Made by a program: the position numbers and the translations under genes. A stretch of DNA of 62,856 bases, filler included, from Collodictyon triciliatum (taxonomy: Eukaryota): the NCBI GenBank assembly GCA_043381765.1. It is 5 parts of 5 records of this genome, joined end to end, with 100 filler letters (N's around TTAATTAATTAA, not from the genome) between each part and the next. Parts side by side here need not be neighbours in the genome. Positions count along the whole stretch, not along the records: positions 15,148 to 40,870 come from JBHJMP010000668.1; 4 more parts are not named here. One strand, written 5' to 3'. The notes beneath the pieces were generated by a model. The model was given only the letters and a program-made list of their open reading frames with translations. It had not been told where the DNA came from and made no database searches. This document shows, piece by piece, positions 15,999 to 21,228 of the stretch (position 1 is the first letter of the stretch; each line of letters begins with the position of its first letter).

Positions 15999-18900
15999 CT
16001 ACTGAAGCTTGGCAAGTACAACGCCCACAGCAATCAGGCGCCCGTTGGACAGGAGCGAGACACGCCCAAAGTCTTTGTTCCTTGAAAATTCTTCGACGCA
16101 GATGCCACCGGACTCGACCTCGATAACAACATCGACACTCTGCCCTGGCGCAGCATATCTTGCGATGAACAACAGAAGGGTTGTGAGCGACTGGAAATGT
16201 GGATTTGGCAAACAACGTGCTTCCACCCAGGCATACTATATACTGTGCTCAAAAAAAAAGTTTCATATGGGGACTTATGGGGATGCGAAGCGAATGGAAT
16301 GCCTACAGTAAAACACACTCCACTAATAATTACACACCGTATTCCCTTTGTTTCCTTATAATTGTGGTTTTTTTCCGTGGTCGCAGTAATCTTCTTGACT
16401 ATTATTGGTTCCGTTTGGCTTCGGCAGCAGCACATCGCCCAAGTACCTGGTTTTTAGATTACATGCAAAATGGTGCATCAGGTATTTCACTGCATGTTCA
16501 TGGGTGAAGTAAAATAAAATGCATTCGAAAAGAAAATACCTCTAGTTATTGGCGACAGCGGATTCAAAACAACAATTCTGCATACAAACAACTTGACTGG
16601 ACTGAGCTATTCTTTAATAGATAAGAAATGCGGGAACAAAAAAAAATTGATAAAAAGTGTGTTTGAACGACGAGATATATGCATCTGAGGTACACAAACC
16701 ACATTCTCAGGGTCGCACAACACATCTCCGATTCTAATACCCAGAGTTCATACGGTGAATTTAATTCACGTGCGCGTCATAAGTTCTTGGAATTATAAGA
16801 AAAAAGTCCATAATCTGTTGCATACCGCATAGAAGTCATATTTGTATTCGTGAGTACAATCTCTACCCAGTCACCAGCCATAGATATATTCTGTATTTGA
16901 TTTGTTTGACCTTGCATAGTGATACCTACGTAATTTTTCAAAAAAAAATGTGACAAATAGTTGTGTAAATGTCGATGCAATTTGACATGGATACATCGAA
17001 ACAGAGTAAAATGAAATGAAGATGTCCGTTTACTTCGGCCTATATACCACCTTGACAAAAACATTACATAAAAATGTCCTTCACCTTTTACAACAACCAT
17101 ATCTTTGGTAATGGACGAAAGAAGCTGAAAAATTCATAAGTGACATGAATGATAAGTTTGAGGAAATTATGAAAATCTTTGCATCGGCTCTGATATAATC
17201 AGATTACATTATCTCCAACAGCAGCGTTTCCAGAGATTATTTTCCCAGAAACAACTGTGTTTGATGACGCGTTTCGATAAATATCATATATACTCAACCG
17301 AAGAGGGTTTTCCAGAATCACAGTATTCGCTGAATGATCACCTTTTTTTTTAAAAAAAAAAAAATTAAGTACGAAGTAGTTTCGAACTTTCAAAAAAACT
17401 CATAGCTTCACCAGTAGATTCATTTAACAAACAGAGGAGAAAATTGTAGTAGCTCACAAATAGCCTTCATAATCGAATCTCCCTTGTACCAATCAATTTC
17501 TTTATTTTCCTTAACACAACAACCGCTGAGTCCTGATGATGGAATGAACTGGACTTGCGATGCACGAAATCTATATGAATGGTAGATGTAAATAATACGA
17601 AACGTAAAAATACCAAATCAGGTGTAAATACAATAAGAACGTATTTGTATTTGAAAAATTGAATCTTGTAATGGTAACAATAAAGTTGTTTTTTTATTGA
17701 ACTAAAGATTGGACTCTTTGACAAGATTCCTGCATGAAGGCTCTTCTTCAAGAAAAAAAAAAAAGAGAGAATAAAACGATGTATACCCTGATCGGTTCAA
17801 AATATCGCAGAAGGCATTTTTTGCTTGTTGAAAGGTTGCTTCTTTCCATTTAACCTATTGATTGCGTTATTGAAGGATACGACTGTTTTTATCATATAAA
17901 GATCCTATTATTACTCTGTCATATTGCAAGGGAGTGTATGAAAATTTATCTATAGAGCAAATGTTAAGTGTAAAAACACCACTATCTAAACCTTGTCCAT
18001 CTTGTTTATAATCACAATCAGCTTCGAAATACCGAAGCTGCGAAGGAGCGTCTAATCAAAATATTTGGATGAAGATGTCTCGATGTTTAAAAAAAACGTA
18101 ACTGGATAAAATAATAACTGATAATCAAATGAATGTGGAAAATGGCAAAAATAAAATACCAACTGCTCCTTTACAAGGTTATGGCTTCCATCCTCTTTCG
18201 GTGATGAATCCACACTTGTAACAAACAGAAATATATCTGCCTTAAAATAATGCGTTAAAGGCGATAATTTTCCCTACACCTTCCTATGATATAAATATAT
18301 ATCGACAATTTCATTTATATTTTTTATTTACCAACCTGAGAACATCCAGAAACCAATTCATGATAGAATGAACCAGACCCCGGTACATCAATAAGATGGA
18401 ACCCGACAGTCGAACTATGGTCAATATATCTGACACACGAAGAGACACTCCCTCCTGTTCAGGTCACATATATGTAAAATGATGGTGTCTCTCAGTACAG
18501 TCAAAATTTATATGATATAATAATAATAAAAAAAACGCTATCAATTTGTGCGCTTTACTGGAAGCATATAAACCTTGTCTTCTCTCATAAGCAGTTTCAT
18601 CTAAAATCCATGCCAAGTAAGAATCTTTCCTGCCTGCTTTTTCAGCATCTATCTTTGCCCTAGTGTTATGCGGTATTTTTTAGAGATTAAAATACTTGAA
18701 CATGACTTCTTTGAAAGAAAAATTAATTCGTCTTTATAAAACAAACCTATGTATTTGCTGCTGCGTTGTATGGCCATAAATGAAAAGGATTTGACTAATC
18801 AGTGTGCTCTTTCCAGAATTAACCTCTCCACAAAACACAATAGCTTTGGTGATTTTCTCTCTTTTGAGCTCCTATTGAAAGAAAAAGTAGACTCGATTTT

Positions 18901-19221
18901 TTAAAAGAGAAAAAACGCTTAAGAAAAAGAGAAAAAATCCATTTTCCGAACCTTAACACAACTGGAGACTTCACGGGCTCGGGCAGTAGACCTTTGAGGA
19001 ATAATCTTTTCCTTTCTAATTTTTTAATTGAAATTATGAACGTGCGATAATCATAAATATAGTAGTTTTTATATGTCGCTCATGATGCACGTAAAGCATG
19101 TGAATATTTACTTTGTAAAGACAGAATCTGATTTAGAACTCTGCTCCTGAGTGACAGGCAGCTTTTTGATGAACTTGACGCTATTAGGAAAATTCAGATT
19201 ATTAGTATCAGTATTCATGTA

Positions 19222-19315
<94 letters not shown>

Positions 19316-19415
19316 NNNNNNNNNNNNNNNNNNNNNNNNNNNNNNNNNNNNNNNNNNNNNNNNNNNNNNNNNNNNNNNNNNNNNNNNNNNNNNNNNNNNN
19401 NNNNNNNNNNNNNNN

Positions 19416-19483
<68 letters not shown>

Positions 19484-20543
19484 TCTTCTCTTTTTAGCTG
19501 CAGGATTTAAACATAGATACCAGGATTGCTCAGATGATGGTATGATAGGGTAGTCTTTTCCTTCTTTTTTTTCTTTTTTTATGGCTCTTAAACCTTTTGC
19601 TTGGATGGTCTTTGGCCTCTGTCACAACATTCTTCTCATCCTGTGGGTTCGACTTTTCCCCTGAATCGAGGGAAGCCGGCTCTTTAGCTGGTGCACTCGA
19701 GGACACTGTGGTAAAGGAAAACAAAATTCCAGGATTTCATGAAGCTTAATCAAAATCACAGGATTCAAAACAGATTTAGTTTCTTCAGTTCTTGAATAAT
19801 TAATGGAGGAACCTGGTTTTTGTGGAGCTCTCTTGAATCTTCGCTGTTGCATTTCGATGACTAATTCATCGGGTGAGGGTGTATCAAATGTGAACGGTTT
19901 GATCTTGGCATCGCTTTCGAAGGATATGATCGATAATCCGTGACTAAGGAATTTGGATATGGCTTCATCCTCCACGTACTCTTTGCATACAATGCCAGCC
20001 AGTCCAGAGGGGATGGCTGAATACAACTTGGGATGAACTTTGAGTGCAGTTATTTCAAAAGAGTTTTTTGCCTCTTTACTCGAGTCCACTCTAGATAAAT
20101 CGTGCTGCAGCAAAGATATTGACTCCTTCAAATTATCTAATACACGTGCATCAGCCGTCTTGTCCTGTGCGGCTAACGGGGTCGCATGGTGTTGGGTTTC
20201 TACGCTGCCATCACCTGAAGTGAGTGGCCGGATACTTTATCAAACTGCAGCCAGTGACACACTATCTTTGCTTAAATCTATGAAAATAAAGAAAAGAAGA
20301 AACGAAAAGAAAGAAAAAGGATGGGCCTGGCGAATAATTTCAAGGAAGCTCAAGGCACCGCATGTATTGCGACTCAAGATTTTGGCACTTACAAAGACTT
20401 CTGTTGAGAGAGCCGCGATACAGAATCCCGATGGCCTCGTCGACGTCGTTTTCTGCTTGCTGCAGGGCCAGACGAACATCCTCCTCCGGAAACTCGTCCC
20501 CCACAACTTCAATCACCTCCTCCACGAGCGTTTCAACATCCAT
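15999..20543 (-). CDS. SKI7/HBS1: Ski7-like / HBS1-family translational pseudo-GTPase
   Basis: HBS1-N-like helical N-terminus (VEEVIEVVGDEFPEEDVRLALQQAENDVDEAIGIL), PFTFDTPSPDELV motif, G1 GEVNSGKST, LAWILDETAYERRQG, G3 DVPGS, G4 NKMD, FIPSSGLSG, PLRLSIYDIY, domain III end FGRVSLLSNGRLIAVGVV*. The start could alternatively be at 20642. Confidence 0.9.
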
Positions 20544-21228
20544 CTGCAAAAACAACGTGACAAACAAGTCAACAAAGAAAAACACGAGAAGCCCGTTCTT
20601 CTGTCGCAAGGCCTGAGTCTTTCCCGATTCAACGATAGCCATTCATTTAGGCGCAAGGCTGTGGACGCACACAGTACTGCAAATCGTTCAGCTTGGCCCG
20701 AGCCGTGCATTCAAGAGTTGTCTAACAAAAGCAGCGTGAGCGCTTCAGTTTCGCCGAGCCGCTCAGAGGCCAGGCAATCATACGCGTCCACACCGAAACG
20801 CGCTTTGGGACTGTTATGGCATGAGAGCGCCGGTCCGGATTCATTTCACGCATCCGATTATTCTCATGACAGTTTCTATACTGAGCACACCCGGCGCGGA
20901 ACAAACGAAGCGGCCTTGGGCGCAGGTAAACGGAGTCAACGCTCTGAAAAGATCACTTCGTGGCGTATTGCTGGTTGGGAATAAATGTTGGGGCGCGAGT
21001 CGGAGAGATAGAGCGTCTGTTGCGGCTGCATTGGTTTGGGGAGGCTTCTTGATTGCCGAAGACTTGCAGGCCACCACAAAGCGCCACCATTTCTGACACT
21101 CTCGATCTGCAGGGCAAAGCCCAGGAGAATACGCGCAGATGATCGGCTGGGGGCGAACTCCCACAAGGAATTCTGCAAATAACACCACAAAATATGCGAC
21201 CGCCAAGCGCGAAGGCAACCTCCTTCGC

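Follow-up and report, generated by a model that had tools for sequence, protein, structure and literature searches.

A stretch of 62,856 nucleotides (nt) from the protist Collodictyon triciliatum (assembly GCA_043381765.1), referred to here as the window, carries on its minus strand, at positions 20543-15999, a gene for a protein of 697 amino acids (aa) that belongs to the HBS1/SKI7 family. The protein combines a UBA-like N-terminal domain, a motif of the Patch-4 type that is known from the exosome-binding segment of Ski7 proteins, and an eEF1A-like body whose G centre departs from that of canonical HBS1 proteins. The reading favoured here, which is considered moderately probable, is that of a real and expressed Ski7-like adaptor with a non-canonical GTPase, independent in origin from yeast Ski7.

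The closest relative found is a 666-aa protein (P0003) that by its source label comes from the transcriptome of Diphylleia rotans. It is collinear with the window protein from the first helix to the last strand (407 bits), and 244 of 659 aligned residues are identical.

Gene structure and transcripts

The reading frame begins with an ATG at 20543-20541, ends with a TAG at 16001-15999, and is made up of 19 coding exons (2094 nt) with this single terminal stop. All 19 exons have AG/GT borders. G+C is about 44% in the coding sequence vs 24-40% in the introns, and the window has 15 runs of N. The exon model was begun by eye; tblastn with the relative then added a 64-nt exon (3b), and RNA contigs added a 69-nt exon (3a) and the last two exons. 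Only this one HBS1-like locus was found by tblastn across the window, and an Rfam scan of the window gave no match.

The RNA evidence consists of contigs from three runs, X1 and X2 of one study and X3, a freshwater metatranscriptome, of another; a further run, X4, has no contig placed on the window. Contigs of the three runs sit on exons and skip introns, and 14 of the 18 introns are seen as joints with GT..AG ends. For the introns at 17457-17342 and 17786-17571, which have no listed joint, X1 contig 2 agrees in its pieces and its length; for the last intron (16337-16159) the evidence is a loose end of X1 contig 1 whose letters read as window 16350-16339. Stretches without RNA cover (19181-19593) are given no evidential weight either way. 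Two stretches of X3, of 226 and 223 nt, match the window letter for letter. X1 and X2 differ from it by a few per cent, and their sources are therefore close relatives or strains. The original prediction had named pseudogene status as a danger to its reading; with spliced RNA in three runs and a frame open over 697 codons, the span is an intact, expressed gene.

Two observations concern the transcripts themselves. A 167-nt X1 contig at 18023-18189 spans the intron 18159-18052 unspliced, alongside a spliced contig at the same junction, which shows that run X1 contains pre-mRNA or DNA. In addition, the ATG is directly preceded by an acceptor-like ttgcag (window 20544-20560), and X1 contig 5 extends upstream of 20545 with 22 letters that are not those of the window. 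Together these point to an intron in the 5′ untranslated region, or to another joined leader, that ends at the start codon.

The linker that follows exon 2 is encoded by three exons. Exon 3 lies at 19594-19705; the intron before it (19812-19706) is spliced out in X1, and its KP/V junction matches P0003. Intron 3 (19181-19593) contains an (AAT)n microsatellite and a 100-N assembly gap (19316-19415), and has no RNA cover and no bridging contig. Exon 3a (19112-19180) has a donor joint in X2 (19015/19112); X2 cover ends at about 19180, next to an AG at 19182-19181, from which the acceptor is inferred. Exon 3b (18952-19015) was located by tblastn with P0003 residues 225-241, and both flanking introns are spliced out in X2. 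Two candidate exons were discarded. The (AAT)n tract was tried as a poly-Asn exon and was rejected, since its frame is incompatible with the good acceptor at 19497 and the exon spliced to 3b begins near 19180. A candidate exon 16 at 16302-16244, with a 53-nt intron, was rejected because RNA contigs give 16446-16338 and 16158-15999.

The N-terminal domain

Exon 1 (20393-20543) encodes residues 1-50, a UBA-like domain of three helices, and is followed by an intron (20392-20215) that is spliced out in X1. The domain is recognized by the Pfam family UBA_RAD5A (34.7 bits, 1.3e-8; cut-off 27), and the nearest sequences in PDB are the UBA domains of Cbl-b, with a weak E-value of 0.24. In the AlphaFold model of P0003 the N-domain is a three-helix bundle, and 32 of 47 aligned residues are identical between the two proteins. 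It had been predicted that the protein keeps the HBS1 N-domain. A domain is indeed kept and is UBA-like; the label HBS1 N-domain fits it only loosely, as Pfam HBS1_N scores 13.7 bits (0.085), below the cut-off of 26.4.

The putative exosome-binding segment

Exon 2 (19813-20214) is an in-frame cassette of 402 nt, which X1 contig 5 joins to exons 1 and 3. It encodes a disordered stretch, a candidate SKI7-like helix and a Patch-4-like motif. According to Brunkard and Baker, SKI7 is defined by two elements, a SKI7-like and a Patch-4-like motif, for which consensus forms are given in section 8 of their review (PMC6143672). The plant Patch-4 consensus is IaPFKFDaPSPDDhV. The SKI7-like motif is given as RxxxFxxxL, as A+PShFAahL (the metazoan consensus) or as A+SLFaaa[P/L].

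The Patch-4-like element is the clearer of the two. The motif PFTFDTPSPDELV is found at 19897-19859, where the original prediction had placed it, and the segment IKPFTFDTPSPDELV fits the plant consensus. A search of all six reading frames of the window for PF.F...SPD[DE] gives a single match, against none in 300 shuffles. With the helix that follows it, the motif forms the segment KIKPFTFDTPSPDELVIEMQQRRFKR (19829-19906), and residues 154-179 align with residues 242-267 of the human HBS1L isoform chain 9g8m_E of an exosome complex (E 0.34 by itself). The structure described in PMC11540850 has residues 602-616 of human SKI7 on CSL4 and the helix 617-632 in contact with SKI2. The AlphaFold model of P0003 has a helix (146-157) right after the Patch-4 motif, and the remaining linker is of low confidence. 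The sequence FTFDTPSPDE is identical in the window protein and P0003, and no other part of the linker is as well conserved as the Patch-4 segment. The consensus fit, the alignment with 9g8m_E and the collinear alignment with HBS1 proteins thus bear out the prediction of an HBS1-family member that carries a Patch-4 motif of the Ski7 type.

The second element is a candidate. A helix, LYSAIPSGLAGIVC, lies at 20026-19985, again at the predicted place. It aligns with PSELANVIC of P0003 and SPMASALC of P0005, a 153-aa protein, and resembles A+PShFAahL, and its assignment is insecure. The decapeptide AIPSGLAGIV, conserved with P0003 and P0005, is similar to PShFAahL. It differs in having Leu in place of Phe and in lacking a basic residue, and MAFFT pairs it with a different plant helix.

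A phmmer search with exon 2 against 1.84 billion representatives gave three matches, P0003 (1e-11), P0005 (5e-4) and a low-complexity chitin-binding repeat protein, which was disregarded. Other homologue searches with exon 2, including the Atlas, and with part of the last exon gave no match, and a metagenome scan for the Patch-4 region produced 84 pattern matches, none of which was confirmed. P0005 comes from an ENA record with a 2940-nt contig and shares the pattern ISxFLxSH...SD..IKPFxFDTxSPD[DE]LV with exon 2 (45% over 62 residues, 51 bits). Possibly it represents a single exon of a related eukaryotic gene, annotated as if it were a complete protein.

The G centre and the translational-GTPase body

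The body has the order of a translational GTPase: an eEF1A-like G domain, domain II and domain III. Exon-wise Pfam matches to GTP_EFTU are collinear (5-34, 63-92 and 116-133, in exons 4, 6 and 8) and are followed by GTP-eEF1A_C. The motifs GEVNSGKST, RRQGGS, DVPGS and NKMD, quoted in the original prediction, are all present on the minus strand within 20543-15999.

G1, GEVNSGKST, lies at 18829-18803 in exon 4 (18747-18871), which aligns in PDB with the G1 of eRF3. X2 contig 7 has no differing letter over 18746-18870, and GEVNSGKST is therefore present in a second run. Switch I is split by an intron (RRQ/GGS). Its first half, RRQ (18583-18574), is in exon 5 (18574-18659), which encodes AWILDETAYERRQ, was recognized by alignment, and has flanking introns that are spliced out in X1 and X2. 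The second half, GGS (18454-18447), is in exon 6 (18336-18454), together with the G3 motif DVPGS (18389-18375); both are placed by alignment. Exon 6 alone has no match in PDB. The G3 motif could be checked in RNA: X1 contig 4 is without differing letters over 18335-18453, and thus DVPGS and not a canonical DxPGH is present in the transcript. G4, NKMD, is at 18006-17995 in exon 8 (17992-18051), which is delimited by RNA joints.

The canonical state was taken from an alignment with four HBS1 rows, Solanum P0013, Smallanthus P0009 and P0011 (three plant-type) and Aspergillus P0014. G1 and G3 are GHVDSGKST and DSPGH in the three plant-type rows and GHVDAGKST and DAPGH in Aspergillus; NKMD is found in all four, and the window residues fall in the same columns. 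Over the four rows the motifs read GHVD[SA]GKST, ERxRG[IV]T, D[SA]PGH, QT[RK]EH and NKMD. The plant-type rows have GRVxLR and Aspergillus has TRIVLR, so the second Arg is present in all four.

Neither the window protein nor its Diphylleia relative has the canonical catalytic G centre (GHVDxGKST, a switch I Thr and DxPGH). G1 is GEVNSGKST in the window and GAPGSGKST in Diphylleia, switch I is ERRQGGS and ERKQGGS, and G3 is DVPGS and DTPGR, respectively. At the QTREH position the window has VKEQ and Diphylleia LREQ; G4 is NKMD in the window and NVFD in Diphylleia, and GRVSLL and GRIGLI stand at the position of GRFxLR. The window protein thus has Asn for the P-loop Asp, Ser for the switch I Thr, Ser for the catalytic His and Leu for the GRFxLR Arg. 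The loss of the catalytic His from G3, a central claim of the prediction, holds, as the Ser occupies the same alignment column as the canonical His. The P-loop GxxxxGKS/T, DxxG and NKxD are kept. A Ski7-like G body that is probably impaired in hydrolysis is well supported by these residues.

The remaining exons complete the body. Exon 7 (18160-18240) is fixed by RNA joints in X1 and X2. Exon 9 (17787-17854) has the joint 17851->17989, and its junction with exon 10 is unlisted as a joint and fits the length of X1 contig 2. Exon 10 (17458-17570), with a G5-like SSGLSG at 17539-17522, is supported by pieces of X1 contig 2 and X2 contig 6 and by alignment. Domain II starts in exon 11 (17208-17341), whose best PDB match is S. 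pombe Hbs1 (3mca_A) and which has an RNA joint. RNA joints also define exon 12 (17085-17124), exon 13 (16826-16925; X1, X2 and X3), exon 14 (16700-16733; X2 and X3) and exon 15 (16540-16606; X2 and X3). Exon 16 (16338-16446), in domain III, has the joint 16443->16537 (cut +3) in X2 and X3 and an X3 piece at 16367-16443, and it closes a gap in the alignment with P0003. Exon 17 (15999-16158) encodes the end of domain III, with GRVSLLS at 16067-16047 and the stop; it is covered by X1 contig 1 (15950-16159) and matches Pfam GTP-eEF1A_C at 1e-6. The query for that match (16002-16190) ran 32 nt past exon 17 into the last intron, and the matched query residues 12-58 are inside exon 17.

Family placement

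By score, several comparisons place the protein near Hbs1. Scores with the window model are 203 bits for Aspergillus Hbs1, 170-190 for plant HBS1/SKI7, 137 for eEF1A-like and 98 for CysN sequences. Among PDB sequences, P0003 matches mammalian Hbs1l best by far (8.6e-57), followed by S. pombe Hbs1 (3.8e-40), aEF1A (about 1e-37) and eRF3 (about 1e-33); the bit scores of 196 for Hbs1l, 131 for aEF1A and 118 for eRF3 likewise put it nearer Hbs1. Yeast Ski7 is absent among the best 60 of its 103 PDB sequence matches. In the Atlas, P0003 adjoins fungal clusters labelled ‘elongation factor 1 alpha-like’. The AlphaFold model of P0003 is most similar to the GTP form of aEF1A-Pelota and to ribosome-bound Hbs1l (TM on target 0.81-0.83), a fold search that shows the general EF1A fold only.

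In a tree of 11 rows, the window protein and the Diphylleia protein form a clade (100/100) on a long stem of 1.61, apart from Aspergillus Hbs1. This tree has no eRF3 or yeast Ski7 row and used an earlier, partly wrong domain III. Of the phylogeny that the original prediction called for, this tree gives the clade itself but not its deeper placement. A protein search with P0003 gave 15 matches, and no further member of the divergent clade was among them. The motifs QGGS and REQLT are common to both proteins, which shows that their ancestor had already diverged.

Budding-yeast Ski7 arose by an HBS1 duplication within the ascomycetes (PMC2613156; PMC3597508). No descent from that orthologue group is seen here, the sole close relative being the Diphylleia transcript. 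The predicted independence from yeast Ski7 is thus upheld by the 100/100 clade and by the ascomycete origin of Ski7.

The Diphylleia transcriptome also contains isoforms, and the SKI7 region is carried by all three that cover the N-terminal part. One isoform, P0008 (250 aa), equals P0007 up to ...SQLLQ and then has nine other residues and a stop. The point of departure aligns with the junction of exons 3b and 4 in the window (18952/18871), where reading through the exon 3b donor leads to a stop after about ten codons. Intron retention at this shared junction could therefore yield a short protein with a UBA-like domain and the SKI7 motifs and no G body, like human HBS1L3. It may also be mentioned that a 428-aa eEF1A-like protein, P0015, has DVPGRRDF, with Arg at the position of the catalytic His, and SHYASGKST together with an intact NKMD; it is another member of the EF1 family without this His.

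Pattern of conservation

Identity between the window protein and P0003 is 32/47 in the UBA-like domain, 37/74 in the SKI7 region, 71/219 in the G domain, 39/92 in domain II and 39/106 in domain III. Between the canonical HBS1 proteins of Solanum and Aspergillus, the N-terminal region is the worst conserved (42/181) and the G domain the best (104/217). The order of conservation is therefore reversed: the N-domain and SKI7 region exceed the G domain in the window-Diphylleia pair, whereas the G domain exceeds the N-region in canonical HBS1. In keeping with this, Pfam GTP_EFTU scores 74.7 bits in P0003 vs 168 and 182 in canonical HBS1.

The body is apparently still under constraint and does not drift freely, to judge from residue differences. 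Between two Diphylleia variants there are 18 differences in 666 residues, 15 of them in two linkers and one in the UBA-like domain, with none in the SKI7 region and two in the body of G domain, domain II and domain III. Of 21 coding differences listed between the window and X1 or X2, 14 are in the disordered first part of exon 2, and six are in the exons of the three-domain body (two synonymous, two conservative and two in one codon). As the table of X1 and X2 differences is incomplete, the low count in the body is a hint only. Within exon 2, window 20070-20158 (residues 70-100) has 11 nonsynonymous X1/X2 differences in about 30 codons, and is a fast-evolving disordered stretch ahead of the motifs. 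The finding that the collinear, 407-bit Diphylleia transcript is degenerate too argues that the degenerate G centre is conserved in a lineage and is not a product of decay. The comparison shows an architecture that appears to be old and maintained and to have arisen independently of the yeast Ski7 lineage.

Comparison with known Ski7 and HBS1 proteins

Saccharomyces cerevisiae Ski7 is also derived from HBS1 and has its exosome-binding segment in front of an eEF1A-like body. It binds GTP, and its crystal structure has Asn277 in place of the P-loop Asp, a metal-binding Ser333 in switch I and Ser360 in place of the catalytic His (PMC4509514), and the same three substitutions, Asn/Ser/Ser, are found in the window protein. 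Marshall et al. describe Ser, Asn or Asp at the His position of post-duplication Ski7s (PMC3597508). Atkinson et al. report that Ski7 lost GRFTLRD (PMC2613156), where the window protein has GRVSLLS. The two differ in that yeast Ski7 originated separately, within ascomycetes, whereas the window protein groups with Diphylleia. Moreover, post-duplication yeast Ski7 is described as being without the structured Hbs1 N-domain (PMC3597508), whereas the window protein keeps a UBA-like one, and the unusual Thr276 of the yeast P-loop has no counterpart here, Val being kept.

The long isoform of plant SKI7 (At5g10630; Solanum P0013) has its parts in the same order as the window gene: N-terminal region, then the SKI7 motifs on a cassette exon, then a full C-terminal translational GTPase. 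Its Patch-4 consensus is the one that the window motif fits. The plant protein, however, keeps GHVDSGKST, DSPGH, QTREH, NKMD and GRVxLR, of which the window protein keeps NKMD alone, and it has a RanBP2 zinc finger in place of the UBA-like domain.

In human HBS1L isoform 3, the N-domain shared with HBS1L binds the 40S subunit, and a CSL4-binding patch is followed by the SKI2-contacting helix (PMC11540850); this is where window residues 154-179 align. The human isoform ends after the exosome-binding region, but the assembled transcripts of the window gene continue into the G body. A counterpart of the human form may exist in the short Diphylleia isoform P0008.

Canonical Hbs1, which delivers Pelota/Dom34, is of the same family and fold, Hbs1l being the best match for P0003 and S. 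pombe Hbs1 the best for domain II. The window protein departs from it in the catalytic His, the switch I Thr, the P-loop Asp, the His of QTREH and the Arg of GRFxLR, all of which are changed, and in a G domain that evolves faster than the N-terminal parts.

Interpretation

If the protein works like Ski7, the Patch-4 motif would bind CSL4, a subunit of the exosome cap, and the following helix would extend to SKI2. Through the N-domain and the G body the adaptor would be positioned on the ribosome. The G body would bind GTP without canonical hydrolysis, as a fixed ‘GTP-form’ module and not as a switch that delivers Pelota. The overall reading of the original prediction is thus retained in part, namely the HBS1 family, the Patch-4 motif, the loss of the His, a UBA-like N-domain, expression and independence from yeast; what has to be amended is the N-domain, which is only loosely of the HBS1 type. 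A stand-alone, duplicated paralogue, as predicted, is a possible status of the gene.

Several points speak against the adaptor reading. A Ser at the His position might still permit slow hydrolysis, and for yeast Ski7 itself Kowalinski et al. left both hydrolysis scenarios open (PMC4509514). With NKMD and the P-loop intact, a working switch is possible. The second Ski7 element (RxxxFxxxL or A+SLF type) appears to lack a secure match, having Leu and not Phe and no basic residue, and the other candidate, AKNSFEITAL, varies in X1 and X2 (A99T, K100E). In-frame skipping of exon 2 would yield a protein of the HBS1 form. The 11-row tree leaves the window-Diphylleia clade unplaced among HBS1, eEF1A-like and CysN rows, and the species assignment of P0003 rests on the source label of a culture transcriptome.

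The alternative that survives best, although it is somewhat unlikely, is that this is the only HBS1/SKI7 gene and that it serves two functions. Inclusion of exon 2 would give a SKI7 form, and its omission a Pelota-delivering HBS1 form with an unusual working G centre. Exon 2 measures 402 nt and its skipping keeps a single open frame, so that a plant-like two-isoform gene is possible, though all contigs include exon 2: none of the 15 joint rows skips it, and exons 1, 2 and 3 are contiguous in X1 contig 5 (rare forms may be hidden from contigs). One alternatively spliced HBS1/SKI7 gene is described as the common state (PMC6143672, section 7; PMC7491326), there is one HBS1-like locus in the window, and the protein retains intact P-loop, DxxG and NKMD motifs as well as domains II and III. 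On the other hand, the catalytic His and the GRFxLR Arg are lost, and in Diphylleia NKxD as well (NVFD); the G domain is the least conserved part (71/219); and no N-terminal Diphylleia isoform is without the SKI7 region.

A related thought, rather unlikely as it stands, is that the gene is the sole HBS1-family member both here and in Diphylleia, and that the lineage turned HBS1 into a non-hydrolysing exosome adaptor and left Pelota without a catalytic Hbs1 partner. Pelota acting without such a partner has been proposed for apicomplexans, which lack Hbs1 altogether (PMC2613156). If this were true, the repeated Asn/Ser/Ser G centre would represent a selected, GTP-locked state and not decay.

Improbable, in addition, is re-use of the G body for work away from the exosome, such as regulation on the ribosome in competition with Hbs1-Pelota, with Patch-4 as a remnant. 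The C-terminal part of yeast Ski7 (Ski7C) was concluded to be a regulatory module that competes with Hbs1/Dom34 (PMC4933942), and the human Patch-4-like motif is reported in section 8 of PMC6143672 as neither necessary nor sufficient for exosome recruitment. A remnant, however, fits poorly with a Patch-4 segment that is the best conserved of the linker, down to an identical FTFDTPSPDE in the window protein and P0003, and with a SKI7 region in which Diphylleia variants show no differences.

A decaying duplicate or transcribed pseudogene, in which the G motifs would mark loss of function, is highly improbable: the departures of G1, switch I, G3 and GRFxLR from the family consensus and the failure of exon 6 alone to match in PDB would suit it, but 697 codons form one open frame over 19 exons, all splice sites are canonical, three runs contain spliced transcripts of the gene, the 666-aa orthologue is collinear (407 bits) and shares the derived QGGS and REQLT, and only 2 of the 18 differences between Diphylleia variants touch the body of G domain, domain II and domain III.

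Returning to the adaptor reading, a Ski7 whose GTPase body is dead is known from budding yeasts (PMC3597508; PMC4509514; PMC2613156). Outside them, SKI7 is described as arising by splicing from an HBS1 with a canonical catalytic centre, or as a short protein that lacks the G body (PMC6143672; PMC11540850; PMC7491326). No report of a GTPase-degenerate SKI7-like protein outside fungi was found by the literature searches made here, although published supplementary tables of Hbs1 distribution or Ski7 alignments may include some. That the three active-site substitutions recur in another, independent lineage, expressed and kept between two distant protists, argues that a non-hydrolysing G body is selected in an exosome adaptor. 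The protist gene also provides a second case against which ideas on the role of the Ski7 G body can be compared.

Other features of the window

Pairs of N runs (44 N, 12 letters, 44 N) are present at 9342-9441, 15048-15147, 40871-40970 and 53490-53589 and adjoin microsatellites; these positions are the filler joins between the parts of the window. Elsewhere there are 100-N gaps, all within simple repeats, and the window as a whole is very rich in short tandem repeats.

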